A DNA stretch of 64,000 nt, from the NCBI GenBank assembly GCA_964596115.1, contig CAZQRW010000001.1:9114-73113 (forward strand), in the 5' to 3' direction. Source of the DNA: an uncultured bacterium (GTDB lineage Bacteria; Hydrothermota; UBA3072; B12-G15). The notes beneath the pieces are model-generated. The model searched no databases. It saw nothing but the letters and a program-made list of their open reading frames with translations, and was not told where the DNA came from. Within the stretch, counting starts at the first letter, position 1. Each line of letters starts with the position of its first letter. The translations under genes were made by a program, and so were the position numbers. This document shows positions 3,428 through 58,572 of this stretch, in pieces.

Positions 3428-4252
3428 CTACTTTTCGATTCTTATGATTCTACTGCCGATAGGATAGGGTGAAAATTTACATTTTGATGGTCTTACCTCA
3501 AGATCTATTATCTTGTATATAATGGAATCAGGTTTAATTTCGCACATAATACCTTCGCCCTTGCCGCTTTCAGAGTAGGTCCCGAAGGAAAAATTTCCCA
3601 GGGAAAAGACGACCAATTTTTTCTTATAGATTTCTTCTCCCTGTAAGGTATGTGGGTGGTGGCCGTACACAAAGTCCGCCCCTGTATCGATTGCCAATTT
3701 TGCAATCCTTTTCTGATAGCTTTTTGCTGAATCAAGAAGCTCTTCTCCCCAATGAAAGGCAACCGCTAAAAAATCGAAAGAGTCCCTGTATGTTTCTATA
3801 TCACTTTTTATATACCTTTCGTTTCCATAGGCAGTACCTGCTTTATTTTTACCTGCCCAGAAAGAAGAAGGAAATGTGAGGGAGTATGCCAATACACCTA
3901 TCCTATATCCATTGATAATAAAATGCATGGGTTCCCTTGCTTTAAATATATTCATTCCAGCGCCTGTGTGTTTTATATTATATCTGTCAAGTAATTGCAG
4001 AGTAGATTTTAATCCTGTAATACCGAAGTCCATAATATGATTATTTGCAATAGTAACCCCTCCAATACCACCTTTTTTTATGTATTTTGTATAGGAGGTA
4101 TCTATATGGAATACATACTTCTTTAACGAATCGGGATTCCCAGTATTCGTAATAGGGGATTCAAGATTTACAATGACAATATCAGCAGAATCAATTAAAG
4201 TTTTAATCCCCAGGAAAGGTTTATAGGGGCTTTTCTTTAGGATGGGTTTCAA
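3428..4252 (-). CDS. CapA/PgsA-family metallophosphatase (poly-gamma-glutamate/capsule synthesis type).
   Basis: Motifs VYGHHPHTLQG, LGNFSFG, GADFV. 70 nt downstream of the TamB-like gene on the same strand. Confidence 0.7.
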   Translation of the reverse strand: MKPILKKSPYKPFLGIKTLIDSADIVIVNLESPITNTGNPDSLKKYVFHIDTSYTKYIKKGGIGGVTIANNHIMDFGITGLKSTLQLLDRYNIKHTGAGMNIFKAREPMHFIINGYRIGVLAYSLTFPSSFWAGKNKAGTAYGNERYIKSDIETYRDSFDFLAVAFHWGEELLDSAKSYQKRIAKLAIDTGADFVYGHHPHTLQGEEIYKKKLVVFSLGNFSFGTYSESGKGEGIMCEIKPDSIIYKIIDLEVRPSKCKFSPYPIGSRIIRIEK

Positions 4253-4322
4253 TCTATGAGCCGGTAAAAAATCCCCCAGAAATAAAATCCTTATAGATTG
4301 TAGGATAAGGAATATTAAAATG

Positions 4323-7300
4323 TTAGTACCTCCATTTAAAATTTAGAAGTACCCTTCTATTGCCAAACATATCCTCACCCGCATATACGCTTCCCCATCG
4401 GGAAAACCTATATTCAAATGTATATTCCATACGTGGATAAGGTGAAACCTCAGTCCCAATTTTCACAAAAATACTCTTTGTAATATATTTTCCAACACTA
4501 AGTCGGTATCCCCTGCTTTTTTCAATATCAAAGACATCAAGTCCAAATTTCTCCTTAAACTTTTCCGCCAGCGCCCTTCGGGCAAAATAATTAAATGCTG
4601 TATTGGTTATAGCATCCTCTACCGAACTCAGGGAAGCAAGTTCATCCCAGGAGAGATTTAAACCCAAAAGGGCAATTATTTCTGATGAAGAGTGAGGTGG
4701 TTTTGAGTATAGTGAAAAATTTGGGTGCCTCATCGTTCCACTAACATTCAAAAAAATAGAATCCCCCTCTGTTGTAACTGTCCTTGAAAGCAAGTCAAGC
4801 TTTGGATCTATTACGGGAGTGTTATTGAATTCGAATGTTCCTCTTAAGACATCAAAATCCTTGTAGTAATAATAAAATTTCCCCCTTTTTGTCTCCATTT
4901 TTCCTGATAGCAAAAGATCACCCCAATTGTAAAATATCTTCATTTTTCCACCCATCTCTAAATTTGCATTTTCATTTTTTAACCAAATATTGTTATTTGT
5001 AGCATCTACTGTAAGATCAAGGTAAAGATTATTTAGGCCTTTGCTTCCAACTGGTTGTGATTTAAACGGTATACTTATTGTTGCTTCCCCAACATTAATA
5101 TTGCCGAATATCATAGTCCCTCGAGTGCCTGATTTTACCGTTAAATTTCCATCTATGATGCTATTTATATAATTATAATTAACAAAAGTATTTTTGAGGT
5201 TTGTTGAAATTTTATACGAATGCTTGGCAAGATTAATAGAACCATTTGCCTCAACCTCTCCTTCCCCTATAATACCTTTAATGCCAATTAGATTTATTTC
5301 CCTTCCTTTAAATGATACAGTACCATTGAGATTCCCTATTTTTATTCCAGTTCTGTTTTCAATTACGGTCATATTTCTAATATTAATGCTTCCATCAAGT
5401 GATGGAAAATTAATTGTATGTTTCACCGTAATATCTCCTGATATGTTACAGGATTTGGGACTCACATATTTATCAAAAAAAGAAATTATCCAAACGCCAG
5501 CCCCTCTTATATGGGCATTCACATTTATTGATTTGTCGATAGGTGAGAAATATCCATAGATTTTAGTTTTATTATTGTTATCGAATATAGTCAAATTATC
5601 TATATTTACCTTTCCTTTTGATATCATAGAAACAAGAAAAATAGAATCCCCATAAGTAAATCTTCCACCAAGCTGTTTTCCTTTTGCAAATAGCCTAAAT
5701 TTAGGAGCAAGAATGCTTCCACTGATGTGACCCACACCGTTGATGTTGCCTGTTAGAGGAGTCCCAAAAAATGTCGAAAATCTTTCCAGCCTAAGGTTAG
5801 TTACAGCTAAGTCCCCATTCAATTGTCCATTTGTTTTTGTTGTTATTGATGCAGAAAAATTAAAATTGTGATTGTCAGACATATTAAAATTCGTCATATT
5901 CAGTTTATTTTTTAAAATTATCCTTGTCGGGGAGGAAAGAATGATCGTATCCCCAGGGATCTCCAGGCTCAATTCCTTTAATGAGAAGGCTAAAGAATCA
6001 AAATCAAAATCTGTAAGGAATCTTAATTTTCCCTTGCCTGATTTTATCAATCCACGTGCTGATAATTGGTTATTGTCTATATCGGCTGAAACATAAGATA
6101 TCGAGGATGATAAATTTTTCCATCTTATATTTTGGAGATAGGTATCGATGTGACCTCGTGGAGGAAACAGAGAGGAAAGTTCGATGTTACCTCCAAGATA
6201 TTCAAAACTAATTGTTTTACTTTTCCCCTTTTCTATCCAGTATATTCCAGACAGCCCTGAAGGCGATAACTTGGCTTCGATTCCAATTAATCCTGAATCA
6301 AGAGGAGCGAATCTACTAAATGGAGGTATTTCAAGATTTTTACAGATGAGCAAACCATTTCCTTTGAAATCTTTTCTGCTTATTACGAGTTTTGACTCAA
6401 TGTTACCGGAAGGTGAGATTATTTTGAAGTTTTTTACATATAGGGACTCTCCTAAACCCTTGACTTCAAGATTTAATTTACTCAAGGGATAATGCTCAAT
6501 AAATCCATTAAGATTTCCTGTAAGGGAAAATTCACTTAATTTTTTATACGAGATGTCTATTTTCCCATATAAATTAGAAGAGGGTAAAGATTTTAATAGG
6601 GCATTGAGATTTAGGTTATCAAGATTTAGAGAAGCATCTACTCTTTTGTTTAAAGAAATTGTACCATTTAAACCATTACTGTCAAAAGAAATAAATGTAG
6701 CAAAGTTTTTATCTGTCTTACCGGAGAATCGAAGTGAATCCAATGAATAATTTTCATATTTTACAAATTTAGAACTACCCTTGAATTCATATTTTTTTCC
6801 GTATTTATTTAATGAAATTAATACATTGCCTTCAAGATTTCTTCCTGTGAAAAAATTAAGTATAGAAAGATCAATATTTCCCATTACGTAGAAACTATCT
6901 ATATTTCCCTTTGCTGAGATAACAGTATTACCTGACCGTATATTATAAATATTAAAAAATGCCGTTGTCTTTGTAAATGATACATCACCTTTAATTTGTT
7001 TAACATTGATAGAATCAAGATAACCATTCATGTTTTTGATGCTGAGATTTAATTCTTTCCCAGTAGAGATAGCAGAAACCATTCCATTAATACGGAGGAT
7101 ATGGGATTCAAATTGTAATTTTCCGTTAACAATGGTTATTTCTCCTATACTAAATTTAGTTGGTAGTGACCAACTTTTTCTTTCCTTCTTTTTATTTTTG
7201 CCTTTGGTATATTTATATTTAATTCCATCAATTGAGATATTCTTGATTTTCCGTTTTACAATAGTCGGAAGATAATGAGCAGAAAAATTATCAATAAAAA

Positions 7301-7502
7301 TGTTATCTCCAATTTTTAGTTCTTTTATGTTAAGTTCTGAAAATATATTCCAATGCAGTTCACCTATAGAACTTTTTGCTGGCAATTTTGATAGAATAAA
7401 GGATGTTAGATTTCTTTCTATTTTTCTATGGATTTTGGGGTAGAATAATGTAATTGAAATAATAAAGCCTAAAAAAACAAGTAAAAGTATAAGTCTTCTC
7501 AT
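4323..7502 (-). CDS. TamB/AsmA-like inner-membrane-anchored envelope-spanning protein (translocation and assembly module family).
   Basis: N-terminal TM anchor (LILLLVFLGFIISITLF), about 1000 aa of beta-rich Asn/Ser/Gly repeats, C-terminal DUF490/TamB-like segment (GKFYYYYKDFDVLRGTFEFNN...LDLLSRTV...). Confidence 0.65.
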   Translation of the reverse strand: MRRLILLLVFLGFIISITLFYPKIHRKIERNLTSFILSKLPAKSSIGELHWNIFSELNIKELKIGDNIFIDNFSAHYLPTIVKRKIKNISIDGIKYKYTKGKNKKKERKSWSLPTKFSIGEITIVNGKLQFESHILRINGMVSAISTGKELNLSIKNMNGYLDSINVKQIKGDVSFTKTTAFFNIYNIRSGNTVISAKGNIDSFYVMGNIDLSILNFFTGRNLEGNVLISLNKYGKKYEFKGSSKFVKYENYSLDSLRFSGKTDKNFATFISFDSNGLNGTISLNKRVDASLNLDNLNLNALLKSLPSSNLYGKIDISYKKLSEFSLTGNLNGFIEHYPLSKLNLEVKGLGESLYVKNFKIISPSGNIESKLVISRKDFKGNGLLICKNLEIPPFSRFAPLDSGLIGIEAKLSPSGLSGIYWIEKGKSKTISFEYLGGNIELSSLFPPRGHIDTYLQNIRWKNLSSSISYVSADIDNNQLSARGLIKSGKGKLRFLTDFDFDSLAFSLKELSLEIPGDTIILSSPTRIILKNKLNMTNFNMSDNHNFNFSASITTKTNGQLNGDLAVTNLRLERFSTFFGTPLTGNINGVGHISGSILAPKFRLFAKGKQLGGRFTYGDSIFLVSMISKGKVNIDNLTIFDNNNKTKIYGYFSPIDKSINVNAHIRGAGVWIISFFDKYVSPKSCNISGDITVKHTINFPSLDGSINIRNMTVIENRTGIKIGNLNGTVSFKGREINLIGIKGIIGEGEVEANGSINLAKHSYKISTNLKNTFVNYNYINSIIDGNLTVKSGTRGTMIFGNINVGEATISIPFKSQPVGSKGLNNLYLDLTVDATNNNIWLKNENANLEMGGKMKIFYNWGDLLLSGKMETKRGKFYYYYKDFDVLRGTFEFNNTPVIDPKLDLLSRTVTTEGDSIFLNVSGTMRHPNFSLYSKPPHSSSEIIALLGLNLSWDELASLSSVEDAITNTAFNYFARRALAEKFKEKFGLDVFDIEKSRGYRLSVGKYITKSIFVKIGTEVSPYPRMEYTFEYRFSRWGSVYAGEDMFGNRRVLLNFKWRY

Positions 7503-7981
7503 TATTCCTGAAGAAGTCTCCCTATAAATTCATAAATCTTTTTTTCGTCTCCTTCTTCACTATGGGTTACTCCTTTAACAGGTTTTGAAGCATTTTGAAG
7601 AATTCGATTAATTTGTTTTGAGACATGTTTTGATTCAGCTTTTACAACACCCAGTAGAATATTTTTTTTGAACAAAGAAGCAAATACCAATTCCTTGGTA
7701 ACCTGCAAATAGTGTATATTCCAGGTCGTGCCTTCAATAAAAAACTCTTTCATTTTTTCTTTAAGTAGTGAAGCCAATTTTTGAGAAGAGTTAAAAACAC
7801 TCGAAATCAAGGCTGCAATTGACAGCACTTTCAATCCACTTGTAAAACCATTTTCGCTTACAAGTTGTCCACTCTTTGAGATCAACAATACGCATCTAAC
7901 ACCTGTATTACTGACATATTCCTTTAAAATCGAGTTAATATTTTCTGAAACTTTTTTTGAGAGTATTATCTCTTCCGCCAC
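7502..7981 (-). CDS. Roadblock/LC7 (MglB-like) domain protein.
   Basis: Robl_LC7-like core (VRCVLLISKSGQLVSENG...), 159 aa, 1-nt overlaps on both sides. Confidence 0.6.
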   Translation of the reverse strand: MAEEIILSKKVSENINSILKEYVSNTGVRCVLLISKSGQLVSENGFTSGLKVLSIAALISSVFNSSQKLASLLKEKMKEFFIEGTTWNIHYLQVTKELVFASLFKKNILLGVVKAESKHVSKQINRILQNASKPVKGVTHSEEGDEKKIYEFIGRLLQE

Positions 7982-8313
7982 TATAAGATACCCTCAAGTA
8001 TTTTGGCTCCTTCCTTCATCTTTATTTTTACATCGCCAATGTTGACATCTGAAGATGTAACAACGCCAACGATAAAGTTTTCTTTTGTCACCATTAATGC
8101 AAATCCACTTGAGCCCTTTATTGTTGTTAGCACATTTTTCTTTATTTCAATTTTATTGATTACATCTTTTGCAATTTTCGCTATTAAGGCAGAGAGCAAC
8201 TCTTCATCCATATCAGTTTTAGACAATGATTTTATTACTATTCCATCGTAAGATATAATTGAACAACTATAAACACCGGGAATAGATATAATTTCTTCAA
8301 TTACTTCATCCAT
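7981..8313 (-). CDS. Roadblock/LC7 domain protein.
   Basis: 110 aa. IPGVYSCSIISYDGIVIKS...GFALMVTKENFIVGVVTSSD matches the Roadblock fold pattern. Confidence 0.6.
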   Translation of the reverse strand: MDEVIEEIISIPGVYSCSIISYDGIVIKSLSKTDMDEELLSALIAKIAKDVINKIEIKKNVLTTIKGSSGFALMVTKENFIVGVVTSSDVNIGDVKIKMKEGAKILEGIL

Positions 8314-9108
8314 TTATACCCCCAGGCTCTCTTTTAAACGCATAAGTGTTTTTTTTGCTTCTAATAAAACGATCCCTTGCTGGATATTTTTTCCAGTAAG
8401 GATAGTTAAAACTAAAGGTGGAGAAGCGAGTACAAAGATTTTACCTTTTGGAAGTTCAAAAATGAGATATTCTAGATCCCCCAGATTTATCTTTTTGATT
8501 GTTTCCATTGTTTCTAATAGGATTGATGAAATAAGGGCACCTGTGCTTTCGGTATCTATTGGGACTTTAACTACCTGTGAAATTAATAAACCCGAGTCAT
8601 CCGAGAGAATTGTTCCGAGAATTTCTTCTATTGAAAATAATGGATTTAAGATCATCTTGATGGGGTCAGCTTCCTTTTCTGTCAATACTTTTTGCCCTTT
8701 TTTAATGGCTTCTTCGGTTGCTTCTTTTTCTTCTTCGTGTCTTTCCTCTAATGGGGGAGTTTCTTTTGCTTTAATTTGCTGAGTTTCTGTAGATAGTTTT
8801 TCGGCAATATTAGAGCTTGTTTCGCCTTGTTCTTTGAATACCTTCTCTTTTATAGTAAGTAGAAGTTTATTTTCTGGATCAATTCTAAGTGCCTTACTAA
8901 GGTGTGATTTCGCCATATTTATATTCCCTTTGAGAAGGTATGACTCTATTAATTTTTGATAGGCAGGAATATAAGAAGGGTTATTTTCTATTGCAGATTT
9001 AAGTAGCTCAACAGCTTGATCAACAAGACCGCTCTGCAAATAAAGGTCAGCAAGAGATGTTAATACAGCAAGAGAACCAGGGGCATTTTTTAAACCATTT
9101 TCATCCAA
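8314..9108 (-). CDS. TPR-like N-terminus plus acidic linker plus C-terminal Roadblock/LC7-like domain.
   Basis: N-terminal TPR helices (AVELLKSAIENNPSYIPAYQKLIESYLLKGN), Glu/Lys-rich linker, C-terminal GLLISQVVKVPIDTESTGALISSILLE...KGKIFVLASPP. Confidence 0.55.
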   Translation of the reverse strand: MDENGLKNAPGSLAVLTSLADLYLQSGLVDQAVELLKSAIENNPSYIPAYQKLIESYLLKGNINMAKSHLSKALRIDPENKLLLTIKEKVFKEQGETSSNIAEKLSTETQQIKAKETPPLEERHEEEKEATEEAIKKGQKVLTEKEADPIKMILNPLFSIEEILGTILSDDSGLLISQVVKVPIDTESTGALISSILLETMETIKKINLGDLEYLIFELPKGKIFVLASPPLVLTILTGKNIQQGIVLLEAKKTLMRLKESLGV

Positions 9109-10096
9109 TGTTTACCTCCCTTTTAATAAGTCGTTTCGAAAGTTCCTTTAATATATTTAATATTTCTCTGATTTCAGCCTTGATTTTTTCATCCTTCGAA
9201 ATTGCTATAAAATTATTCCAGATAGAGATCGCATTATAGAAATTACCTGACATAGTATAGAAGAAGCCAAGATTATACAGAATAGTTGGATCCATTGGGT
9301 GATCTTCCAATAATTTAGAAAGATATTCTATACCTTCAGCATATTTGTTTTCTTTCCATAGAGTGTTAATCTCAGGTAATATATTATTTTCTGACTCTTG
9401 ATGTTTTTCAGTTATTTGTTTTCTTTTTTCCTCTTTCTTTTTAACAACGATTCCTGACATTAACAAACCGTATAGAATTTTTACTGTAGTGAATTCATCT
9501 CCTGTAAGGTTAATTATATCTTTAACAGTGCGATTACCATCTATATATGACATAATTCTCCATTCTTGAGGTTCAAGATGAATATAGGGTTTTTTTTCTA
9601 TCTCCTTTGAAAGACTCAATCTATTTTCAGGGGATATCGCCTCTTCCATTCTTGTAATTTCATCCAGTCTTCTTGCCCCTTCCATTATTAGATTTTCTGC
9701 TTTTAGGCCAAGATTAATTCTTCCAGGAATCTCGAAGTCAGTTTCAACAAAAGAAAAATAGCCATCGCTCAGTTTTAGTAACTCATAGACCTTATTAACA
9801 ACGATATTTTTAAGAAAATCTTTTACTTCCCGTGGAAGAATCCTTTTGTCCGAGAGAACAAAAGAGATGAGATTTTTTTTGCCTACTTCGTTCTCTTTAA
9901 TTATATCTCTCTTTATAAATTCTTGTCTTATTGTATTATCCACATCCATATAAGAGAGATTTCCATTTTTAAAATAGAGTTTGTACTCTTTTTGGGAGTT
10001 ATCTATAACTTTTAGTATTCCAGTTTTTTTTGCAAATGAAATTAGCTGGAATAACTCAAAAAGGCTAAGTTCTTTTATCGGTCCCTCAATAGCCAT
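9101..10096 (-). CDS. PATAN/DUF4388 domain protein with C-terminal TPR repeats.
   Basis: N-terminal GPIKELSLFELFQLISFAKKTGILKV is the PATAN (DUF4388) signature. C-terminal TPR region (ILYNLGFFYTMSGNFYNAISIWNN). Confidence 0.6.
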   Translation of the reverse strand: MAIEGPIKELSLFELFQLISFAKKTGILKVIDNSQKEYKLYFKNGNLSYMDVDNTIRQEFIKRDIIKENEVGKKNLISFVLSDKRILPREVKDFLKNIVVNKVYELLKLSDGYFSFVETDFEIPGRINLGLKAENLIMEGARRLDEITRMEEAISPENRLSLSKEIEKKPYIHLEPQEWRIMSYIDGNRTVKDIINLTGDEFTTVKILYGLLMSGIVVKKKEEKRKQITEKHQESENNILPEINTLWKENKYAEGIEYLSKLLEDHPMDPTILYNLGFFYTMSGNFYNAISIWNNFIAISKDEKIKAEIREILNILKELSKRLIKREVNIG

Positions 10097-12726
10097 TAGG
10101 TTTCTCCTATTACCCTAAGTAATTTCTTTGCAGCATTGATTGCTTCTTTTGCTTCCCTTGCAGCCTTGGAATCGGGCCATTTACTAATAATAGTATTCCA
10201 TACCTCAATGGAATTTTGAAATTGGCCTAATTTTGTTAAAAGTTTAGCGAGAAGACGATAGGCAGTTTCATTTTCTTCGTCTATGCTTATTGCTTTCATA
10301 TATGATCTTATTGCCTCTTTCCCCTTGCCAGTTTTGCTGTTAAGCATACCCTCAAGAACATATATTTCGCTGTCGCCGTATACCTTTTCTTCTAAATTAG
10401 TTAAGAGTTTGATTGCATTTTCATACTCACCAAGTGCATAATGGATTTTTACAAGAAGTTTCATTGCCTTTGGGTAGTCAGGCATTAATTTTAATGATTC
10501 AAGAAGGAAAGATTTACTATCAAGGTAATTTTCTTCCTTTGATAGTATTTCTCCCATTAGATAAAATGCTTCAGCATCTTTTTTTGAATTGATTGCCTCT
10601 TTTAAATAGTCCTTTGCAGAGTTGTATGCCCCTTTTTTAATTAGAAGTTTTGCAAGTTTTTTGAGGGTGTCGGATGTTTTATCATAGTTAAGGAGTTTTT
10701 TTAAGGTTTTTATTGCACCGTTAATTTCACCTACCCTCTCTTGGAGGTTCGCAAGTAATTTATAGCCCTCTATATCATCTGGTGTTTTCTCTATTATTTT
10801 TTGGACAGTCGTTTTTGCTTCAAGGGTATTTTCTTGATCTATGTATAACCTTGCAAGTTCTTTTAGTGATTCAACATTATCTGGATCTATTCTCTTGAGG
10901 ATATCTTTGGCTTCCCCATATAGGCCTTTTATTCTATATATTCTAGCCAGCATTAATGAAGACTTTGTATCTTCGGGGATTACCCTAATGATTTCTTGTA
11001 GTTTTTCCACTGCAGTATCATAATTTTTTGCATTGTAAGCCTCTTCAGCAAGTCTATAATTTTCTTCTATATCGATTTTTGGCTCTTCCTCAGTAAATAT
11101 TTCGTTAAATAGACTTTCTTCGCTTTCAGCGGGTGTACCGGATTCCCGCATTTCCATTTCCTGGGTTAATTCTCTTGATATAAGTATATCAAGCTTTTCG
11201 GAAAAGATATCTATTCCCAATTTGAACCTATTACTTGTATAATAAGGGTTAATCTCAAGTGCTTTTTTAGTTGCTTCAAGGGCTTTATCATATTTACCTA
11301 TACGTGAAAGGGCAAATCCAAGGTTATAGTGCGCCTCAGCAAATTGTGGATCCCTGCTTATAGCTTCTTTAAAGTTGAAAATGGCCTCATCAAACCTTCC
11401 TTCGTTCAAATAAATTAAACCTACATAATTATATGCAAGAGGATAGTCCTCCCTCATTTCAATCACTTTCTTGAAGAGTTTTTCTGCCTCTTCAGACTCT
11501 CCTTCCTGCATTTTAACAAGCCCAAGATTAATATACGCATCAGAGTATTCAGGTGTTATTTCTATTGACCTCTTGAAATTCTTTATTGCCTCCTCTTTTT
11601 TCCCAAGATGATAATAAACTATACCAATATTATTATAAGCAATAGCATAGCCAGGATCAATTTCAATTGCCTTCTTATACCAGGAAAGTGCCTCCTGCAG
11701 TTTGCCAAGTCTATGGCAAGCCACACCTATATCGTTTGGAATCTTCGGAGAATGAGGGTCAGATTTCATTGCCTCAGTATATTCTGCTATTGCCTTATTA
11801 TTTTCATTCTTCAGTAAATATATTTCGCCCATTTGTTTCTTTACCAGTATATTTCCAGGTTCAATTTCTAATGATTTTTCAAATTCTCTTAGAGCCTCAC
11901 TGAATAATCCTTTATTACGAAAAGCAATACCTAAGGAATAATGGGAAAGGAAGGGATTTTTACTTACTTTTTTTTGTTGCACATCGATGAACTCCTTGTA
12001 TCCTTTCTGTTTGTAAAAATCAATTCCAAGGTTTGCCTGGGTCTTTGCATAGATAGGATTTAACTTTATAGCAAGTTTGGTCTCCTTTTTTGCCTTTTCA
12101 ATATCACCTTTTTCACCATAGACAAAAGCAAGAAGAAAATGACATTCTGCACAATCAGGGTTAATCTTAATGGATTTTCGAAACTCGCTGATCGCTCTAT
12201 TGAGTATTCCTAAATTATAGTAGACTTCCCCCAGATGCTTGTGTATTTCAAAATTATTTTTATCAATATTTAACGCCCTTCTGAATACTTCAACAGCTTC
12301 ATCATATAAGCCGATTGCCTTGAGTGATATACCAAGATTTTTCAGTGTTTCAACATCTCCTGGAATTTTTGATAGATAGCCTTTAAAGTATTGGATAGAT
12401 TTAAAATATTCACCTGAATTTTTATATGCCTCTGCAATTTCTTTAAAAAGGTAATAGTTCTCTGGTTCATCTTTCAATTTTTTTTCGAGTTTTTGTATTG
12501 TTTTATCATAATAACCACTATTCTTTAGCACATATTCCAGATTGTTTTTTGCAAGGGTGAAATGAGGATCGATCTGAAGGGCTTTTTTTAATTCTTCAAT
12601 AGCCTCATCATATAGCCCCTTATTAAAGTAAACCACTGCAAGGTTGTTGTGGGCACCAGGATCATCTTGGTTTATTTTTTTTGCAAAGAGTTTCAGTATC
12701 TGCTTTTCTTCATCGCTTATTGGCAT
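10096..12726 (-). CDS. Large tetratricopeptide-repeat protein (about 20 TPR units).
   Basis: Repeated W-LG-Y-A-F-A-P TPR signature throughout (AHNNLAVVYFNKGLYDEAIEELKKALQIDP etc.). Confidence 0.8.
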   Translation of the reverse strand: MPISDEEKQILKLFAKKINQDDPGAHNNLAVVYFNKGLYDEAIEELKKALQIDPHFTLAKNNLEYVLKNSGYYDKTIQKLEKKLKDEPENYYLFKEIAEAYKNSGEYFKSIQYFKGYLSKIPGDVETLKNLGISLKAIGLYDEAVEVFRRALNIDKNNFEIHKHLGEVYYNLGILNRAISEFRKSIKINPDCAECHFLLAFVYGEKGDIEKAKKETKLAIKLNPIYAKTQANLGIDFYKQKGYKEFIDVQQKKVSKNPFLSHYSLGIAFRNKGLFSEALREFEKSLEIEPGNILVKKQMGEIYLLKNENNKAIAEYTEAMKSDPHSPKIPNDIGVACHRLGKLQEALSWYKKAIEIDPGYAIAYNNIGIVYYHLGKKEEAIKNFKRSIEITPEYSDAYINLGLVKMQEGESEEAEKLFKKVIEMREDYPLAYNYVGLIYLNEGRFDEAIFNFKEAISRDPQFAEAHYNLGFALSRIGKYDKALEATKKALEINPYYTSNRFKLGIDIFSEKLDILISRELTQEMEMRESGTPAESEESLFNEIFTEEEPKIDIEENYRLAEEAYNAKNYDTAVEKLQEIIRVIPEDTKSSLMLARIYRIKGLYGEAKDILKRIDPDNVESLKELARLYIDQENTLEAKTTVQKIIEKTPDDIEGYKLLANLQERVGEINGAIKTLKKLLNYDKTSDTLKKLAKLLIKKGAYNSAKDYLKEAINSKKDAEAFYLMGEILSKEENYLDSKSFLLESLKLMPDYPKAMKLLVKIHYALGEYENAIKLLTNLEEKVYGDSEIYVLEGMLNSKTGKGKEAIRSYMKAISIDEENETAYRLLAKLLTKLGQFQNSIEVWNTIISKWPDSKAAREAKEAINAAKKLLRVIGET

Positions 12727-12727
12727 A

Positions 12728-13345
12728 TTATATAAGCCCCATATTTTTTAGCATTGTCTCTAATCCATTTTTATCTGGGATCATTAGGAGAAACCCGTCC
12801 AGTTTCAAATCTTCTTTAGTAAAATAGAAATTTGTTTCTACACAGAATCCATATTCTCTCCCATCAGCAAATTCGAGATAGGCAGAAGAAGTAATAGCTC
12901 CTACATCATCAAGAACAAAGGAAGGAACGGATGGCAATACCATAATCTTCAGAAATTCAGAAATTGCACCAAGGTAAGAACTTGTAATAATATTAGCGAC
13001 TTCTTTTATTGAGGATATTTCCATTTCTCCAAATGTCTTTGTCTCACCAGGCTTTTTATTAAGGAGAACATCAATTATTAATCTCGCATTTTTTTCTGGA
13101 AATATGAGTAAATTTCTACCAGTAATGTCACCAAAGAAATTCGTCAGCGTTGCCGCAACGATTGGTGGTTTTTCACCAAGAATATAAGCAAACTCTTCGA
13201 TCTTTAAAATTTTGACTTCGGGAACTTTTATAAAGACGTTTTTACCTATCATCTGAGAAAGAGCAGTTGCAGCGTGTCCACTCCCAATGGTTACGGCTTC
13301 TTTAATTCCATCAAGATGATAATACTCTAACTCATTTAGTTCCAA
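12728..13345 (-). CDS. cheC: CheC-family (CheC/CheX/FliY) CheY-P phosphatase.
   Basis: Two copies of the CheC active-site pattern: S-x3-E-x2-N-x22-P is intact near the C-terminus (SSIKEVAN...x22...P). The first copy is D-x3-E-x2-T-x22-P (N replaced by T). Confidence 0.7.
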   Translation of the reverse strand: MELNELEYYHLDGIKEAVTIGSGHAATALSQMIGKNVFIKVPEVKILKIEEFAYILGEKPPIVAATLTNFFGDITGRNLLIFPEKNARLIIDVLLNKKPGETKTFGEMEISSIKEVANIITSSYLGAISEFLKIMVLPSVPSFVLDDVGAITSSAYLEFADGREYGFCVETNFYFTKEDLKLDGFLLMIPDKNGLETMLKNMGLI

Positions 13346-13358
13346 TTTTTCCCCCTTT

Positions 13359-15107
13359 CTATACCAGATTTGGAACGTCTAAAATCATACAAGGTTTGCC
13401 ATCACCTAATATTGTGACCCCTGTATACTCTTTTATTCTTCTTAATATAAACGGTACAGGTTTTACCACAATATCTGAAGATCCTATTAATTTGTCAACA
13501 ACCAACACTAAATTTTTCCCTTCAAGATTTATTATTAATGATTGGTAAGAGTCTTTCTTTATACCATTTTCTTCACCGAATAGCTTACTTAAAAAGTAAA
13601 CAGGTAAGACTTTTTTTCTTAGAATGAAAACAGGTTTATTATGTATATAAGAAATTGCATCTCCAGAAAAATTTGCTGTTTCCTCTAAAAATGTCATAGG
13701 AATTGCGAAAAGATCCTTACCTGATTGAACAATATACGCCTTAATTATTGCCATAGTAAGAGGAATTCTAGTAATTACTGTGGTCCCAATGCCTTTTTTA
13801 GAAGAAAGTTCTACTGTCCCTCCAATCTTTCTGATGGTATTTTTTACGACATCCAGCCCAACCCCTCTTCCTGAAACCTTACTTACATCTTCCCTGGTAG
13901 AAAAACCGGGTAGAAATAGAAATGAAAAGGCCTTAGCCTGCGGAATATCCTCCCTTTCAGAATTTTTTATTATTCCTATTTTGACCGCTTTGTCAAGAAT
14001 ACTATCAGTATCTATCCCGCGACCATCATCAATGATTGATATTTTTATATATCCCTTTTCCCTTTCTGCCTTCAATTGTAATTTTCCAGCGGGTGATTTA
14101 CCTTGTTTTTTTCTTTCTTCAGGAGACTCAATACCATGATCTATGGAATTCCTCAAGATATGTATCATTGGATCCGATATACTTTCAATTAAAGATCGAT
14201 CAAGTTCTATATCTCCTCCAATTATTTCAAAGTGAACTTGCTTTTTTAAATTTTCCGCAAGATCTCGAACGTATCTGGGGAGTCTATCAAAGAGGGTAGA
14301 AAGAGGTACCATTCTGATCTTCATTATAACATCCTTGAGTTGAGTAATATTTTTCGAGTGATTTTCTATTGCATCTTGAAGCGCTTCATTCCTATATTCA
14401 ACTGCTAAGTTATAGATTCGTTCTTTAGAGATAATCGATTCAGAAATAATATTTTGTAATTTGTCCAATTCTTCAACCTCAACTCTTATTTCTTTTAGTT
14501 TTTTGGATGTAAGCGTTTCCTCCTCTTTAGGGGTTACATCTGAAAGGATCTCCACATCCGATATATTTGATAATATTTCTTTGGCTAAATTTACATCCTC
14601 AACTATGATGGAATATTCAAAGTAATCGTCAGTTTTGCTTTTTAGATCGGCTATAGATGGAGATGATGAGTTCAATTTTGTTTTTTTTGAAATTAGATTG
14701 AGTATTACCATTCCTCTTGCATTAGGCATCGGTGTAGTATTTTTCAACCTGAATTTAATTTCTTGGGTACTTTTTACTGATTCATTTTTGCTTATTAGTG
14801 CAATTTCTTTTTCTATTATATCTACACCTTGTAGTATCTTATTTACAATGTTTCTTTCAGGGGTTATTTTACCTTCTTTAATTTTATATAAAATATTTTC
14901 GAGGGAGTGAGCAGTATCAACCATCTTTTTATAACCCATACTGGCCGCCATTCCTTTTATTGTATGAAAAATTCTAAACAACTCTTCAATAATTTGAGGC
15001 GAATGTGATTTTTTCTCCAGAGAGATGGCATAATTGTTAAGCTTCTCAATATATGAGCTAACCTCGCTGATGAATAATTTTTTGTAAGAATCTAAGGAAT
15101 CCTTCAT
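13359..15107 (-). CDS. cheA: Chemotaxis histidine kinase CheA.
   Basis: Hpt domain with HTIKGMAASMGY, HATPase (IRNSIDHGIE, DDGRGID, GRGVGLDVV), C-terminal CheW-like domain. Confidence 0.9.
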   Translation of the reverse strand: MKDSLDSYKKLFISEVSSYIEKLNNYAISLEKKSHSPQIIEELFRIFHTIKGMAASMGYKKMVDTAHSLENILYKIKEGKITPERNIVNKILQGVDIIEKEIALISKNESVKSTQEIKFRLKNTTPMPNARGMVILNLISKKTKLNSSSPSIADLKSKTDDYFEYSIIVEDVNLAKEILSNISDVEILSDVTPKEEETLTSKKLKEIRVEVEELDKLQNIISESIISKERIYNLAVEYRNEALQDAIENHSKNITQLKDVIMKIRMVPLSTLFDRLPRYVRDLAENLKKQVHFEIIGGDIELDRSLIESISDPMIHILRNSIDHGIESPEERKKQGKSPAGKLQLKAEREKGYIKISIIDDGRGIDTDSILDKAVKIGIIKNSEREDIPQAKAFSFLFLPGFSTREDVSKVSGRGVGLDVVKNTIRKIGGTVELSSKKGIGTTVITRIPLTMAIIKAYIVQSGKDLFAIPMTFLEETANFSGDAISYIHNKPVFILRKKVLPVYFLSKLFGEENGIKKDSYQSLIINLEGKNLVLVVDKLIGSSDIVVKPVPFILRRIKEYTGVTILGDGKPCMILDVPNLV

Positions 15108-15108
15108 A

Positions 15109-15474
15109 TTATAATTTCAACACCCTCTGCACTGCTTCCAATACCCTTGAGGGTTGGAAAGGTTTTACCACATAATCTTTTGCACCTGCCTGAATAGCTT
15201 CTATGACTAAAGTCTGATGTCCCATCGCACTGACCATTATTATTTTCGCATTTGGATCTATTTTTATAATCTCTTTTACAGCGTCAATTCCACTCATATC
15301 CGGCATAATTATGTCCATTGTAATAAGATCAGGTTTATACTCTTTAAATTTTTCTACAGCATCCTGTCCATCCTCTGCTTCAGCAACAATTTCATATCCC
15401 TCTTTTTTAAGTATATCACTTAACATTTTTCTCATAAACATTGCATCATCTACAATTAGTACCTTAGCAGCCAT
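15109..15474 (-). CDS. cheY: CheY-like single-domain response regulator.
   Basis: KVLIVDDAMFMRKML, phospho-acceptor context ITMDIIMPDMSG, KPF motif. 121 aa. Confidence 0.85.
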   Translation of the reverse strand: MAAKVLIVDDAMFMRKMLSDILKKEGYEIVAEAEDGQDAVEKFKEYKPDLITMDIIMPDMSGIDAVKEIIKIDPNAKIIMVSAMGHQTLVIEAIQAGAKDYVVKPFQPSRVLEAVQRVLKL

Positions 15475-15888
15475 TTATCCTCCTTTATCTATTAATTTTC
15501 TTGTATTTATTATAAGATAGGTCTTTTTGTCTACTTTTGCAATGCCTTTCAAATATTCTACATTTGTTAGTTCTTTCATAGAGGCCCTGGACGTTTTGAT
15601 TTTTTTCTCTGGAATATCTTCTATCCCTATTATTTCTTTTACAAGCAAACCTATTGGTCCTTCTTCTGACTCCAAAATTAATGCAAGGCTATATTCGTCG
15701 TTCTTTAAGTTAAATCTTTTTGCGAGATTGAACAAAGGAATAATTTCGCCTCTTATGTTTGTCAATCCTTCAACATAGGATGGTGCCAGAGGAACATGCA
15801 CAATTTTGAAATCTTCAACAATCTCCTTGACTTTTTTTAATTCTACACCAAAGCTTTCCCTGTTAAGTGAAAAAATTAATATTTCCAT
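15475..15888 (-). CDS. cheW: CheW coupling protein.
   Basis: CheW-like domain (FSLNRESFGVELKKVKEIV...VEGLTNIRGEIIPLFNL), 137 aa. Confidence 0.8.
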   Translation of the reverse strand: MEILIFSLNRESFGVELKKVKEIVEDFKIVHVPLAPSYVEGLTNIRGEIIPLFNLAKRFNLKNDEYSLALILESEEGPIGLLVKEIIGIEDIPEKKIKTSRASMKELTNVEYLKGIAKVDKKTYLIINTRKLIDKGG

Positions 15889-15889
15889 T

Positions 15890-18800
15890 TTACTTTACCC
15901 TTACGTAGTTATACCTATCAAATCCAAGAGGATGAGGAATAAATCCTTGCACATTTTTTCTTACAAGGAATATATTCACCCCATGATATAAGAAAACCCA
16001 GGGTGCATCTTCCACAATTTTTTCTTCTGCCTTCCGGTATATTTCGATTCTTCTCTTAGGATTTATCTCCCTCATTCCTTCCTCTATCAGTTTATCCACT
16101 TCTGCGTTATTATAGAAGGTGTTGTTCCCAGGATCACCTGCATTTTTTGAATGAAATAAAGGATATAGGAAATTATCAGGATCACCATTGTCAGAAGACC
16201 ATCCAAGAATAAATAATTGATGTTTTCCTTTATGTATTCTTTCTAAAAACTCCTTCCAGGGGAAAACATTTAATTCAATATTTATTCCGATTTTTTTGAA
16301 TTCTTCTATTAAATATTCCCCTCTTTTTATATTAGCATTAGTATCACTTATATCAAGAAGATATGTATCTGGAAGACCGTTAGGATACCCTGCATCGTTG
16401 AGTAAATCCATAGCTTTTTCAGGGTTAAAAGAGTAAATGTCCAGATGTGGATTATACACATCCATAGCAGGGGGGAATATTCCATTTGCAGGTGTGCCAA
16501 GTCCATTGTCAAGATTTTTGATCATTCTATTCCTATCTACTGCAAAGTTCATTGCTTGTCTCACTCTTTTGTCTGAGAAGGGCAAATCTTTCTTTTGAAA
16601 ATTAAAACCGAGGTATTGAATGTCAAGTAAACTACCCTCAGTTAAAAATGGAGAAAGTTCTGGATTTTTCCTTGCTTCTACAACACTTGAAAGGGAAATA
16701 TTAGCAATATCAACAATCCCTTCCCTAAAAAGGTCAATACTTCTCTGGGTTTTGTCTGTAATGATAAATTCGAGTCTTTCAAGGAAAGGAGAACCAAGCA
16801 CGTACTCCTCAAATGGTTCAAATACAATTTTCTTAGTCCTTTCCCATGACAAAAGACGAAATGGACCTGTTCCAACAGGGCTTGATATAAAATCTTTTGA
16901 GTATTCAGGTAATATAGAGCCTCCGATTGTTGCGAGGTTTGCAAAAATTGGTATATAAGGATATTTGAGTTCTATCTCAATGAACTGATTTTCTGCAGCC
17001 TCTATACTTTTGACCGCATCAAAGAAAAAAGCATTAGACGCAGAAAGAACTCTTTTGAGTGAGTAAACCACTTCATCTACACCTATATTCCTTCCAGAAT
17101 GGTCTTTGATCCCCCTTTTAATCTTTAGCTGGAGTCTAGTAGTGTTATCCGACAATTTCATTTCTTCAATGAGGGAAGGAAAAACAGAAGTGCCAAGGCC
17201 AAACTCGAATAGACCTCTATAAATTTGGTGAGCTACTTTATTAGAGGTGGTGTCTCCAATTTGAGCTGGATCTAATGTTATAGGATCACCCCCTAAATCG
17301 ACTTTTAATACTCCACTATGTTTTTTTTCTAATAGTGCAAACGATTTTATCTCATCGATGATTCCAAAAGTCACTTTTTTCTCTTCATCTATTTGTTTAA
17401 CGACATCTTTAAAATTGTAAGCAATGCCAACAATTATCTCCGAGAATTCCCTAACAGTACTGGATATTATCTGGATCAGATCTCTTTGAGTACTCATAGA
17501 CTGTCTTAATTCTTCAGTAATTTGGATCATATAGTTTAGGTTCTCTTTATTTTCCTTAAGGGTCATTGATGATTTTTCTACGTTCTCTTTCCCTTTTGCA
17601 GCTGCATTTTTTAAAATGTTTAGATATTGTGAAGCTTTTCTGAACTCTCTGTTTATAATTTTAACGAAGTTATTAAGTTTAACGGACATACCCTTAAATT
17701 TATCTGTAAGGTTCTCCATCTGTTCCACAATAACCATAAGTGAGTTTTGTCCCGCCCTTGCTGCTTCAAGTTTGGCATATAAAGAGAGAATTCTAAGATT
17801 TTCCACAATATTTAAGATATTTATATTCATTTTTTTTAGAGATGACAGTGTATCGTTAGTCTCCTCTGTTTTTATCCGAATCTCTTTAAGGAATATTTCT
17901 AAATCATCAATAATTGAACTTAAAGCAATTATGAATTTTTCAATATTTTCATTATTTTTCATAGAATTTTCAGAGTATTGCTTCAGGTTTGCTACCATTT
18001 CATCCAGATTTCTTAGCACAATCTCCAGGTTTTCTACAGGTTCTGATTCAATAACCTTTTTCATCTTTAAAATTTCCAAGGTTTTTATCTCACCTTCAAT
18101 GTTTTTCAATATAATTATAAAATTTTCCATACTCTTTTGTAGCTGTTCTATCGCAATATCATTAGTGCCAAATTCATCAGCCGCACTGGGCAATATGTTT
18201 TTACCATATTTCATAAGAATTTCTACCATTGACTCCTTCTGGGAGGCAACAAAGTTTGCTCGATTTGAATTTAATAGTAATTTTTGAGATATAGCAATCA
18301 AGTTTTCTATCATACCTGAAATATCTGTGCGTATTTTTTCTTCATTTTCGCCCTGTTTTTTTATGCTTGAAGTGGTGTTTTCCATATTTTTGAAATTCTC
18401 ATTTAAAAGGTTTATTTCATCATTTACGCCTGCAAAAATTTCTTGAATGTTTTCTACTGGTGCATTAATTTTCTCAATGGATTCATTGATAGACTTAGAA
18501 AGTTCATCTATACTATTAATATTTGACATTATTTTGTTTACAATGTCTGAAGATGTGCTAGTAAACTTGGAGAGTTCCATTGCGACAATCTCAAATCCTT
18601 TACCATGAATTCCCGAATGATAAGCTTTTATTTCTGCATTTCTTGCAGTATCGAGACTAACACTATTTAATTTTTCCAGAGAGCCTAAAAGCGATGTAAT
18701 TTTTTCACTCTCATCCTTTAAGTTTCCAATGCTTTTTGTTGTTTCTATAGCTGTTCCTGAGATGTTTTTTATAATTTCAACTACCTCCTTGAGTTGGCTT

Positions 18801-19045
18801 AATACTTTATATATAGTAATTTTACTTTTTTGTGCAGTGGATGATATAGCCCCCATGGCTTCATTTAGCAGCTGCAACGATACAAATAGACTGTTGAGTT
18901 TATCCTTTAAGTTTTGAGCAAGTGAAGAACTTTTAAAACCAGTTGAAGAAACCTCTGAAAGAAAATTGATAATTGCATTTGTAATAATATTTACCCTTTC
19001 GAGACTGTTACCGAGGGTCTCTGTCATAATTATATCTTTTCCCAT
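15890..19045 (-). CDS. Soluble MCP-like chemoreceptor fused to a C-terminal family-5 periplasmic-type solute-binding domain (OppA/DppA-like). No TM segments are visible.
   Basis: Two segments resemble the MCP signalling tip (NAEIKAYHSGIHGKGFEIVAMELSKF and ILSLYAKLEAARAGQNSLMVIVEQMENL versus the consensus [27 protein letters not shown]). About 480 C-terminal residues have SBP_bac_5 hallmarks (LGGDPITLDPAQ...YRGLFEF, GWSSDNGDPDNFLYPLF). Confidence 0.75.
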   Translation of the reverse strand: MGKDIIMTETLGNSLERVNIITNAIINFLSEVSSTGFKSSSLAQNLKDKLNSLFVSLQLLNEAMGAISSTAQKSKITIYKVLSQLKEVVEIIKNISGTAIETTKSIGNLKDESEKITSLLGSLEKLNSVSLDTARNAEIKAYHSGIHGKGFEIVAMELSKFTSTSSDIVNKIMSNINSIDELSKSINESIEKINAPVENIQEIFAGVNDEINLLNENFKNMENTTSSIKKQGENEEKIRTDISGMIENLIAISQKLLLNSNRANFVASQKESMVEILMKYGKNILPSAADEFGTNDIAIEQLQKSMENFIIILKNIEGEIKTLEILKMKKVIESEPVENLEIVLRNLDEMVANLKQYSENSMKNNENIEKFIIALSSIIDDLEIFLKEIRIKTEETNDTLSSLKKMNINILNIVENLRILSLYAKLEAARAGQNSLMVIVEQMENLTDKFKGMSVKLNNFVKIINREFRKASQYLNILKNAAAKGKENVEKSSMTLKENKENLNYMIQITEELRQSMSTQRDLIQIISSTVREFSEIIVGIAYNFKDVVKQIDEEKKVTFGIIDEIKSFALLEKKHSGVLKVDLGGDPITLDPAQIGDTTSNKVAHQIYRGLFEFGLGTSVFPSLIEEMKLSDNTTRLQLKIKRGIKDHSGRNIGVDEVVYSLKRVLSASNAFFFDAVKSIEAAENQFIEIELKYPYIPIFANLATIGGSILPEYSKDFISSPVGTGPFRLLSWERTKKIVFEPFEEYVLGSPFLERLEFIITDKTQRSIDLFREGIVDIANISLSSVVEARKNPELSPFLTEGSLLDIQYLGFNFQKKDLPFSDKRVRQAMNFAVDRNRMIKNLDNGLGTPANGIFPPAMDVYNPHLDIYSFNPEKAMDLLNDAGYPNGLPDTYLLDISDTNANIKRGEYLIEEFKKIGINIELNVFPWKEFLERIHKGKHQLFILGWSSDNGDPDNFLYPLFHSKNAGDPGNNTFYNNAEVDKLIEEGMREINPKRRIEIYRKAEEKIVEDAPWVFLYHGVNIFLVRKNVQGFIPHPLGFDRYNYVRVK

Positions 19046-19098
19046 ATCTTAATAATTACCATAGTTCAAAGCCAATGTCAATAGACAAAAATATGTCT
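19046..19098 (-). promoter_or_regulatory. Promoter of the chemosensory operon. In minus orientation: TTGACA (plus-strand 19076-19081), 17-nt spacer, TAATTA (19053-19058), start codon 7 nt later (leaderless). Palindrome AGACA-N6-TGTCT (19083-19098) sits 1 nt upstream of the -35.
   Basis: Read directly from the sequence. Confidence 0.5.
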
Positions 19099-28568: not shown

Positions 28569-28569
28569 A

Positions 28570-57568: not shown

Positions 57569-57570
57569 TA

Positions 57571-58553: not shown

Positions 58554-58572
58554 TTCACCTCCTTATTTTTGT

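Follow-up and report, generated by a model that had tools for sequence, protein, structure and literature searches.

The operon and its promoter

Here we describe a chemosensory operon in a 64-kb window, the whole stretch of DNA that was analyzed (64,000 nucleotides [nt] of contig CAZQRW010000001.1, assembly GCA_964596115.1), from an uncultured bacterium assigned to the Hydrothermota. Twelve consecutive open reading frames (ORFs) occupy positions 3428 to 19045 of the minus strand, and within them the genes of a chemotaxis-type (Che) pathway are translationally coupled to five genes encoding TPR, PATAN, and Roadblock proteins. An earlier note on this DNA had assigned domains to the products from the sequence alone, and Pfam scans across the twelve ORFs confirmed each domain that it had named. 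The features are listed below in operon order, with lengths in amino acids (aa); MCP and SBP stand for methyl-accepting chemotaxis protein and solute-binding protein.

19046..19098, minus strand: putative sigma-70-type operon promoter (consensus match and comparative conservation)
15890..19045, minus strand: MCP-SBP chemoreceptor, 1051 aa (Pfam MCPsignal, 50.3 bits in two stretches; SBP_bac_5, 246.7 bits)
15475..15888, minus strand: CheW coupling protein, 137 aa (Pfam CheW, 98.6 bits)
15109..15474, minus strand: CheY, single-domain response regulator, 121 aa (Pfam Response_reg, 115.5 bits)
13359..15107, minus strand: CheA histidine kinase, 582 aa, domains P1 to P5 (Pfam Hpt, P2, H-kinase_dim, HATPase_c, CheW)
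12728..13345, minus strand: CheC-type CheY-P phosphatase, 205 aa (Pfam CheC, 55.7 bits)
10096..12726, minus strand: large cytoplasmic TPR protein, 876 aa (Pfam TPR families; no hydrophobic segment)
9101..10096, minus strand: PATAN (DUF4388)-TPR protein, 331 aa (Pfam DUF4388, 76.3 bits)
8314..9108, minus strand: TPR-Roadblock fusion, 264 aa (Pfam TPR families; Robl_LC7, 33.7 bits)
7981..8313, minus strand: small Roadblock/LC7 protein, 110 aa (Pfam Robl_LC7, 21.5 bits, under the cut-off of 23)
7502..7981, minus strand: MglB-like Roadblock protein, 159 aa (Pfam Robl_LC7, 28.0 bits)
4323..7502, minus strand: TamB/AsmA-like protein, 1059 aa (Pfam TamB, 121.8 bits, aa 746 to 1059)
3428..4252, minus strand: CapA/PGA_cap-family protein, 274 aa (Pfam PGA_cap, 201.9 bits)

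The ten junctions that join the first eleven genes, MCP-SBP through TamB, measure +1, 0, +1, +13, +1, -1, -8, 0, -1, and -1 nt in operon order. The spacing of -8 to +13 nt previously reported for the whole operon therefore holds for these genes but not for the eleventh junction, where TamB and CapA are 70 nt apart when the longest possible CapA ORF is taken. The start of the PATAN gene overlaps the stop of the 876-aa TPR gene by 1 nt, the TPR-Roadblock gene overlaps the PATAN gene by 8 nt, and 1 nt is common to the end of the MglB-like gene and the start of TamB. Clear Shine-Dalgarno motifs precede the internal gene starts; the longest CapA ORF begins with TTG and has no such motif. A terminator or structured element was sought in the 70-nt spacer and none was found (z = +1.7). 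CapA is probably co-transcribed through read-through, yet it lies outside the conserved unit.

Upstream of the first gene, TTGACA (19081 to 19076) is followed, after an 18-nt spacer, by AATTAT, which ends at 19052, 6 nt before the MCP-SBP ATG at 19045. No Shine-Dalgarno motif lies upstream of this start, and a second ATG occurs six codons downstream. L001 and L039, orthologous loci with PATAN proteins 44 to 45% identical to that of the window, also have TTGACA at a distance of 29 to 31 nt before the ATG; in more distant loci an AAGGA ribosome site stands before the first gene instead. Given the position of the promoter elements relative to the ATG, the recurrence of TTGACA, and the lack of a Shine-Dalgarno motif, an mRNA that is leaderless or has a very short leader is plausible; the leaderless promoter proposed in the earlier note was thus upheld as a promoter match, with the leaderless start graded as plausible only. 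Internal promoter-like matches (85 seen versus 65 +/- 8 expected) were close to chance for AT-rich sequence and were set aside as evidence. The operon shares a 129-nt intergenic region with a divergent gene (19175 to 20230, plus strand) for a 351-aa TPR protein with a hydrophobic signal-like N terminus, and this gene is not kept beside the operon in relatives.

Receptor, Che core, and the TPR/PATAN/Roadblock module

The receptor is a soluble protein in which a pair of MCP hairpins in tandem is followed by a DppA-like binding domain at the C terminus; its solubility and its two hairpins had not been recognized in the earlier note. Its maximum 19-residue hydropathy is 1.38, against a cut-off of 1.6 for calling transmembrane segments and a value of 2.56 for the membrane anchor of TamB, and 11 of 11 receptor orthologues also fall below the cut-off; the receptor has no transmembrane segment by this measure and no HAMP domain. 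An hhalign comparison shows residues ~10 to 295 to be homologous to residues ~296 to 580 (probability 96%, E = 4e-9, 228 columns), with hairpin tips near aa 134 to 160 and aa 421 to 440. The tip motifs, ARNAEIKAYHAG-x-GKGFEVVA in the first hairpin and LSLYAKLEAARAG in the second, are both kept in 12 orthologues. Tip-to-tip spacing is 286 to 287 aa in one clade and 300 to 301 aa in the other, and the difference of 14 residues equals two heptads, as expected of coiled-coil hairpins. The SBP_bac_5 domain (aa ~590 to 1050) gives its best NCBIfam matches to DppA and GsiB and a weak match to the cytoplasmic regulator SgrR; because of these likenesses and the lack of a membrane segment, the receptor most likely reads an intracellular (cytoplasmic) ligand. 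A single-sequence AlphaFold model of residues 1 to 600 was all-helical with a mean predicted local distance difference test score (pLDDT) of 43 and was not used for fold searches or hairpin geometry. A protein search with the coiled-coil half returned no matches, probably owing to low-complexity words filling the candidate list.

Judged from their sequences, CheW, CheA, CheY, and CheC carry intact catalytic motifs, with one of the two CheC motifs degenerate. Aligned with the CheY proteins of Escherichia coli and Thermotoga maritima, CheY shows every residue of the phospho-acceptor pocket: the DD pair, the Asp that takes up the phosphate, the Ser/Thr, and the Lys. CheA has its phospho-histidine, H48, in an HTIKG (HxxKG) motif, and its best NCBIfam models are CheA families, including archaeal CheA, all scoring below their equivalog cut-offs. 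In CheC the second active-site motif (S111-x3-E-x2-N-x22-P) is intact and the first has Thr instead of Asn; the best NCBIfam model is Thermotogales CheC, at 156 bits and below its cut-off of 250. An MCP domain, CheW, a P1-to-P5 CheA, a complete CheY pocket, and a phosphatase are thus all encoded, with the Pfam matches for the MCP domain, CheW, and CheA above their gathering thresholds, and the gene content, with CheC and a P2-containing CheA, appears to resemble the Thermotoga/archaeal type.

The five genes that follow form a conserved module of which the 876-aa TPR protein is the first member; by analogy with the MglA effector SgmX (PMC11580455), we propose that this protein is a scaffold or effector. 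In the PATAN-TPR protein, DUF4388 (PF14332) spans aa 4 to 146 at 76.3 bits against a cut-off of 25 and is followed by a small alpha/beta middle domain and three C-terminal TPRs. Response_reg gave no match in this protein, and hence there is no C-terminal receiver like that of PatA-type regulators. Its AlphaFold model has a mean pLDDT of 84.5, and a Foldseek search of the model against the PDB returned TPR proteins only, none reaching an E value of 1e-3, with no structural match to the PATAN part. The TPR-Roadblock fusion, which is kept in relatives, matches a Roadblock structure in the PDB (7f8f_A). The small 110-aa Roadblock protein matches another (7f8m_A) at an E value of 1.3e-5, its orthologues score above the Pfam Robl_LC7 threshold that it misses, and a weak MglC match suggests that it might be a second, MglC-like Roadblock subunit. 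MglC is the second Roadblock protein of the Myxococcus polarity module.

The best solved relatives of the 159-aa Roadblock protein are the MglB proteins of Myxococcus xanthus and Thermus thermophilus (E = 2e-8, residues 4 to 133), and its gene is syntenic with the MglB gene directly upstream of MglA in other phyla; the earlier note had singled out neither this likeness of the last Roadblock nor the MglA genes of other clusters. The protein consists of a Roadblock core, a linker of ~15 residues, and a C-terminal acidic amphipathic segment. The C-terminal helix of M. xanthus MglB has the same layout and binds an allosteric pocket on MglA (PMC6785124), and we take the segment as a hint that a GTPase partner still exists. 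Across the MglB-like proteins of the 80 genome loci described below, a C-terminal linker and acidic amphipathic motif is conserved (for example, FKEEVESLIDDMFK, FERDLNRNLAVLFGRA, and EKKIYEFIGRLLQE), and it is common to proteins with and without an adjoining MglA. Residues A64 and G68 in helix 2 of M. xanthus MglB are needed for MglA binding; their loss in MglB-like proteins that lack an MglA neighbor was considered as a signal and dropped, the positions varying equally beside MglA. The last Roadblock gene appears MglB-like, and the locus is not a demonstrated MglA/MglB module member because the defining GTPase is missing locally.

Conservation of the gene block and genes missing locally

Homologues of the PATAN-TPR protein numbered 68, from uncultured bacteria, the closest named one being from candidate division WOR-3. 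Gene neighborhoods were taken from five of these homologues and from 80 genome loci (L numbers) and were labeled by phmmer against reference proteins. All 13 loci of the WOR-3/TA06 type, one of them (L012) truncated at CheA, have the order MCP-SBP, CheW, CheY, CheA, CheC, TPR, PATAN-TPR, TPR-Roadblock, Roadblock, and MglB-like. The flanking genes are unrelated between genomes, and because the order recurs in independent genomes with different flanks it goes beyond chance. At least four metagenome assemblies contain identical copies of the window's genome region, which means that the organism itself has been sampled repeatedly; identical proteins are found in ERZ23491060, ERZ27248458, JGI 3300021503, and SRR7051285.

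Loci of Zixibacteria and Gemmatimonadota, together with related ones (L005, L015, L017, L028, and others), form a supercluster that shares with the window nine orthologous genes in the same order, CheW, CheY, CheA, CheC, TPR, PATAN-TPR, TPR-Roadblock, Roadblock, and MglB, with the PATAN proteins 23 to 30% identical to that of the window. After MglB these clusters continue with a GTPase of ~200 aa, a DnaA-like AAA+ ATPase, a second PATAN-TPR gene, CheR, CheD, and CheB, and they end with a TPR protein, CheW, and a membrane MCP. The GTPase matches Pfam Arf, NCBI and JGI both give its close relatives the name gliding-motility protein MglA, and it carries the conserved motifs of the MglA family; on these grounds it is identified as MglA. 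Compared with the supercluster, the window lacks MglA, the DnaA-like ATPase, the second PATAN-TPR gene, CheR/CheD/CheB, the second CheW, and the membrane MCP, and it gains the soluble double-hairpin MCP-SBP upstream and TamB downstream. The window locus is therefore a reduced variant, without local MglA or methylation genes.

Where the sequence on the relevant side was long enough, CheA and the large TPR gene precede PATAN in 44 of 50 loci and Roadblock genes come after it in 60 of 65; tblastn found MglA at 56 of 88 loci and at none of the WOR-3/TA06 type. The block from CheW through MglB is conserved across several phyla of the Fibrobacterota-Chlorobiota-Bacteroidota (FCB) group, with MglA following in most, and the earlier proposal that a Che core is joined to TPR, PATAN, and Roadblock genes was borne out by the recurrence of the CheA-CheC-TPR-PATAN-Roadblock block in WOR-3, TA06, Zixibacteria, and Gemmatimonadota. 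In L007 the TPR/PATAN/Roadblock/MglA block stands without any Che core and is thus a separate module.

Loci of the Krumholzibacteriota type (L037, L046, L050, L051, and L083) carry a full Che set in the order CheR-MCP-CheW-CheD-CheB-CheA-CheC-CheY, then a TPR protein of ~600 aa and PATAN-TPR, with no Roadblock genes and no MglA; PATAN-TPR may be the Che output alone in these loci. The DnaA-like AAA+ ATPase (445 to 670 aa, with a Bac_DnaA domain that is duplicated in L007) always lies directly behind MglA and ahead of the second PATAN-TPR gene, a slot that it fills in L005, L007, L015, L017, L028, and most Gemmatimonadota and Zixibacteria loci. We know of nothing in MglA systems that explains a DnaA-family ATPase beside MglA.

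Pfam scans of the main ORFs of the 64 kb found no CheR, CheB methylesterase, CheD, MglA, or flagellar gene, and tblastn of the window found no CheR, CheB, CheD, or MglA. In the ~8 kb beyond each window end, reached through identical proteins in public contigs, there were no MglA, CheR, CheB, CheD, pilus, or flagellar genes, so that the lack of CheR/CheB and flagellar genes claimed in the earlier note is confirmed over this span. CheR, the CheB catalytic domain, and CheD were likewise absent from every WOR-3/TA06-type locus. Two MglA proteins served as tblastn queries, and a match of 37 to 40% at 58747 to 58881 was spurious, falling inside a DUF2207 gene. A protein search with a Zixibacteria MglA was saturated, with all 8000 candidates scored, and was uninformative on WOR-3; its best 120 matches came from Zixibacteria, Edwardsbacteria, and Longimicrobiales and confirmed the query as MglA.

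These absences bear on a reading in which the WOR-3/TA06 lineage has lost MglA altogether and the Roadblock/PATAN/TPR complex is a CheY-P-controlled output that binds its target directly. MglA, the DnaA-like ATPase, and the second PATAN gene are jointly missing from 13 of 13 WOR-3/TA06-type loci; orphan MglB homologues are common (328 of 749), none of them characterized (PMC4316618); and the Krumholzibacteriota-type combination of Che core, TPR, and PATAN without Roadblock or MglA genes suggests that PATAN-TPR can serve as an output alone. However, the MglB-like protein is well conserved and keeps the C-terminal segment that binds MglA in Myxococcus, and MglA paralogues, such as SofG and the MglA of Bdellovibrio, are often encoded apart from their partners (PMC4316618). 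We consider this GTPase-free reading quite unlikely.

What follows the MglB-like gene differs among the WOR-3/TA06-type loci: TamB in 8 loci, all of one WOR-3 sub-clade and with TamB proteins 28 to 34% identical to that of the window, an NHL-repeat protein in L004, and a 359-aa TPR protein in L013, L018, L021, and L023. The TamB-like protein of the window has an N-terminal membrane anchor (hydrophobic segment, aa 1 to 25), and since it reaches only 47 bits against the NCBIfam TamB equivalog cut-off of 825 it is a distant TamB/AsmA-like member. No Omp85-family partner (TamA or BamA) was found among the window ORFs scanned by Pfam, the neighbors of TamB being the MglB-like gene and CapA. CapA, 274 aa long and without a membrane anchor, is absent downstream of TamB in L001, L003, and other relatives and was found only in same-species contigs; a poly-gamma-glutamate capsule (CapBCA) locus was rejected, with no CapB- or CapC-like genes in the window.

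The earlier note had linked the pathway to these envelope genes. On such a reading, Che signals would pass via the Roadblock, PATAN, and TPR proteins to the inner-membrane-anchored TamB-like protein and perhaps CapA, giving metabolite-responsive insertion of outer-membrane lipid or protein, or a metabolite-responsive capsule. In accord with this, every one of the 8 loci in the sub-clade has TamB after the MglB-like gene despite the low TamB identity, the overlap of their reading frames recurs at 1 to 4 nt in L001 and L003, no terminator was found between TamB and CapA, and the more distant L004 has an Omp85 gene five genes downstream of its MglB-like gene. Yet the TamB slot is held by the 359-aa TPR protein in the other WOR-3/TA06 clade, by the NHL protein in L004, and by MglA in the Zixibacteria/Gemmatimonadota clusters, none of which has TamB, while CapA, 70 nt away and with no Shine-Dalgarno motif, is confined to its own species. 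TamB is moreover a general outer-membrane biogenesis factor of diderm bacteria, and its presence needs no special explanation. With TamB limited to one sub-clade and CapA to one species, the claimed envelope link is weak, and we think an envelope output very unlikely. A further reading would combine the two: a WOR-3/TA06 Che pathway with neither methylation nor MglA, in which Roadblock, PATAN, and TPR proteins form a direct, CheY-P-gated output and, in the window's sub-clade, coupling to a TamB-like bridge that spans the periplasm and transports lipid and protein lets a cytoplasmic metabolite direct the place or time of outer-membrane building. This is a long shot; if true, it would be the first chemosensory output in envelope biogenesis and the first functional role for an orphan MglB.

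Candidate output and relation to known systems

The reading that we prefer, and to which we give about an even chance, is that the locus encodes a cytoplasmic chemosensory pathway whose target is a TPR/PATAN/Roadblock complex governing polarity or motility of the type IV pilus kind, probably by way of an MglA encoded elsewhere, and is neither a flagellar switch nor envelope synthesis. The SBP domain would bind an intracellular small molecule, possibly a peptide, since it resembles DppA and GsiB. The receptor, CheW, and CheA would form a cytoplasmic array, to which the double-hairpin receptor might contribute in the manner of DosM of Vibrio cholerae, a soluble protein with two signaling domains that spans the two baseplates of the F9 cytoplasmic array (PMC7534058). 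Ligand binding would alter CheA autophosphorylation, CheY would be phosphorylated and CheC would reset it, and there would be no methylation-based adaptation. The docking partners of CheY-P would be the PATAN-TPR protein and the TPR protein: PatA-type regulators fuse a PATAN domain to a receiver, so that CheY and a PATAN protein lacking a receiver, when encoded separately in one operon, are expected to interact. Through the PATAN-TPR and TPR-Roadblock fusions, the TPR, PATAN, and Roadblock proteins may be joined in a single complex, and that these proteins work together is suggested by the chain of fusions, PATAN-receiver in PatA-type regulators, PATAN-TPR in gene 7, and TPR-Roadblock in gene 8. 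This complex would modulate the MglB-like GTPase-activating protein (GAP), which would in turn act on an MglA-type GTPase encoded elsewhere and so set the pole or site of an active surface machine. In this scheme TamB would be a clade-specific passenger, at most accessory, and CapA a species-specific neighbor.

Type IV pili are the likeliest surface machine, given the MglA-SgmX-PilB connection in Myxococcus and the PATAN-PilB1 connection in cyanobacteria. In Myxococcus, SgmX, a protein with 14 TPRs, is recruited by MglA and in turn delivers PilB to the leading pole, and PATAN proteins are among the candidate partners of SgmX (PMC11580455); in Synechocystis, a PATAN domain alone is sufficient for binding PilC and the pilus ATPase PilB1 and for switching direction (bioRxiv 2021.06.11.447907). 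PATAN genes adjoining MglA/MglB have been reported before (Makarova et al. 2006; Wuichet and Sogaard-Andersen 2014 [PMC4316618]), for example in Gemmatimonas, where GAU_1409 is listed as PATAN>MglA>-PATAN (PMC4316618, Table S2). Among Gemmatimonadota, flagellar genes are rare in soil genomes and type IV pilus genes occur in genomes of all environments but marine (PMC10581226), a distribution with which a non-flagellar output of the supercluster fits.

Several points weigh against control of polarity or pili by way of a distant MglA. MglA is absent from the 64-kb window, from the ~8-kb flanks, and from the 10 kb around PATAN-TPR in WOR-3/TA06 loci, which makes the GTPase step wholly conjectural for this lineage, and Pfam scans found no type IV pilus, gliding, or other motility genes in the window. 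The MglB-like protein scores 38.7 bits against an NCBIfam MglB equivalog cut-off of 200, so it is not a close MglB orthologue. The protein interactions among the operon products are predictions in every organism. The MglB-like/TamB overlap of 1 nt is kept across the whole sub-clade, in which PATAN identity with the window is only 39 to 46%, and for this reason TamB may be more than a passenger. Finally, CheY, CheC, and CheA are most like the flagellum- or archaellum-linked type of Thermotoga and archaea, and the target may be a flagellum encoded elsewhere in the genome.

The last of these points can be developed into an account of the whole locus as an ordinary chemotaxis operon of the Thermotoga/Firmicutes/archaea class, in which CheY-P acts on a distant flagellar switch and the TPR, PATAN, and Roadblock proteins are accessories that, for instance, position the array. 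It would suit the Thermotogales CheC and archaeal CheA models that score best, the close alignment of CheY with T. maritima CheY, and the CheR, CheD, and CheB genes of the fuller clusters in other phyla, which are the typical set of that class. The cytoplasmic arrays of other bacteria do need dedicated positioning proteins, and some Gemmatimonadota are flagellated (PMC10581226). On the other hand, the operon and its surroundings, about 80 kb in all, showed no flagellar genes; the supercluster is common in metagenome-assembled genomes labeled SMAG, which we take to be a soil catalogue, and soil Gemmatimonadota rarely carry flagellar genes; MglA, MglB, and PATAN are linked to pili or gliding and not to flagella in every studied case; and the block without a Che core in L007 indicates an autonomous module rather than an array accessory. 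Taken as a whole, a flagellar output is in our view unlikely. A pathway that acts on polarity or type IV pili remains our preferred interpretation, and of the earlier suggestion that the system serves envelope, surface, or polarity functions rather than flagellar rotation, the polarity part is retained, in keeping with the lack of flagellar genes nearby, and the envelope part is weak.

Che-like systems with PATAN outputs are known in cyanobacteria, and in Myxococcus the Frz system acts on MglA/MglB. The Frz-MglA/MglB system of M. xanthus, with MglC, RomR, and SgmX, resembles the window in having a Che-type pathway, a Roadblock GAP module with extra paralogues, and a large TPR effector, and the soluble receptor recalls the cytoplasmic FrzCD. 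In M. xanthus, however, mglBA, romR, sgmX, and the Frz genes lie at separate genomic sites (PMC4316618), whereas their counterparts in the window form one operon; the window encodes neither a RomR- nor a FrzZ-type regulator, it lacks CheR/CheB and a local MglA, and it has PATAN-TPR and TPR-Roadblock fusions instead. The cyanobacterial Tax and Pix systems with PatA-type regulators share a Che-like kinase pathway and a PATAN-domain output, but in the window PATAN is fused to TPRs, CheY is separate, Roadblock proteins are present, no pilus genes lie nearby, and the receptor is no photoreceptor. DosM likewise has two MCP signaling domains in one soluble chain; unlike the window receptor, it lacks an SBP-type ligand domain, and its Che gene cluster is of another class. 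Actinobacterial conservons, made up of the membrane kinase CvnA, the Roadblock protein CvnB, the DUF742 protein CvnC, and the GTPase CvnD, combine a histidine-kinase sensor and a Roadblock/MglB homologue in one operon (PMC4316618), and a conservon model was rejected for the window, which has the Roadblock element only and no DUF742 protein, GTPase, or membrane kinase.

Elsewhere in the window, several groups of genes were recorded. On the minus strand, positions 22374 to 26136 encode an alpha-amylase with a CBM48-type module and a GH57 branching enzyme (glycogen metabolism), and positions 26133 to 30073 encode a ClpC-like double AAA+ protein (811 aa), an McsB-like ATP:guanido phosphotransferase (347 aa), and an McsA-like UVR-motif protein (156 aa), three genes in a row that make up a module for arginine phosphorylation and Clp degradation; it is best known in Firmicutes and is present here in a WOR-3-like genome. 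Besides the receptor, the window encodes one other large sensory protein, a 1023-aa hybrid histidine kinase with at least four PAS domains and a C-terminal receiver (33484 to 36555, minus strand). Two adjacent paralogous DUF3857 proteins of ~680 aa, one with a transglutaminase-like core, lie at 41432 to 45507 (minus strand); a pyruvoyl-dependent arginine decarboxylase and an agmatinase-family enzyme, a polyamine route, at 50941 to 52286 (plus strand); and ExbB, ExbD, and a TonB-like protein, with LemA and DUF2207 membrane proteins upstream, at 56987 to 60776 (minus strand). About 6 kb past the right window end (L089, 16044 to 16307), a ComFB-family gene lies near YchF and glycosyltransferase genes.

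The statement in the earlier note that this is not a described architecture went too far, given that pairwise associations of its pieces are known from cyanobacteria, from Frz, and from the survey of MglA/MglB systems (PMC4316618). The elements and their pairwise associations are thus established, and we found no paper on a one-operon Che-to-Mgl supercluster in FCB-group phyla, or on the reduced WOR-3/TA06 form with its double-hairpin MCP-SBP, orphan MglB-like gene, and TamB.

Che routes to outputs beyond the flagellar motor are understood in only a few model species, and in Myxococcus, where the genes lie apart from one another, it took genetics to work out the link from Frz to MglA/MglB. The one-operon gene set is a ready parts list and an interaction hypothesis for Che-to-polarity signaling in poorly studied, abundant phyla. 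The WOR-3 form adds testable oddities, an MglB-like protein without an adjoining GTPase and a double-hairpin receptor fused to a peptide-transporter-type binding domain, the latter suggesting that an intracellular metabolite is sensed. If the linkage to TamB is functional, it would represent a new class of chemosensory output.

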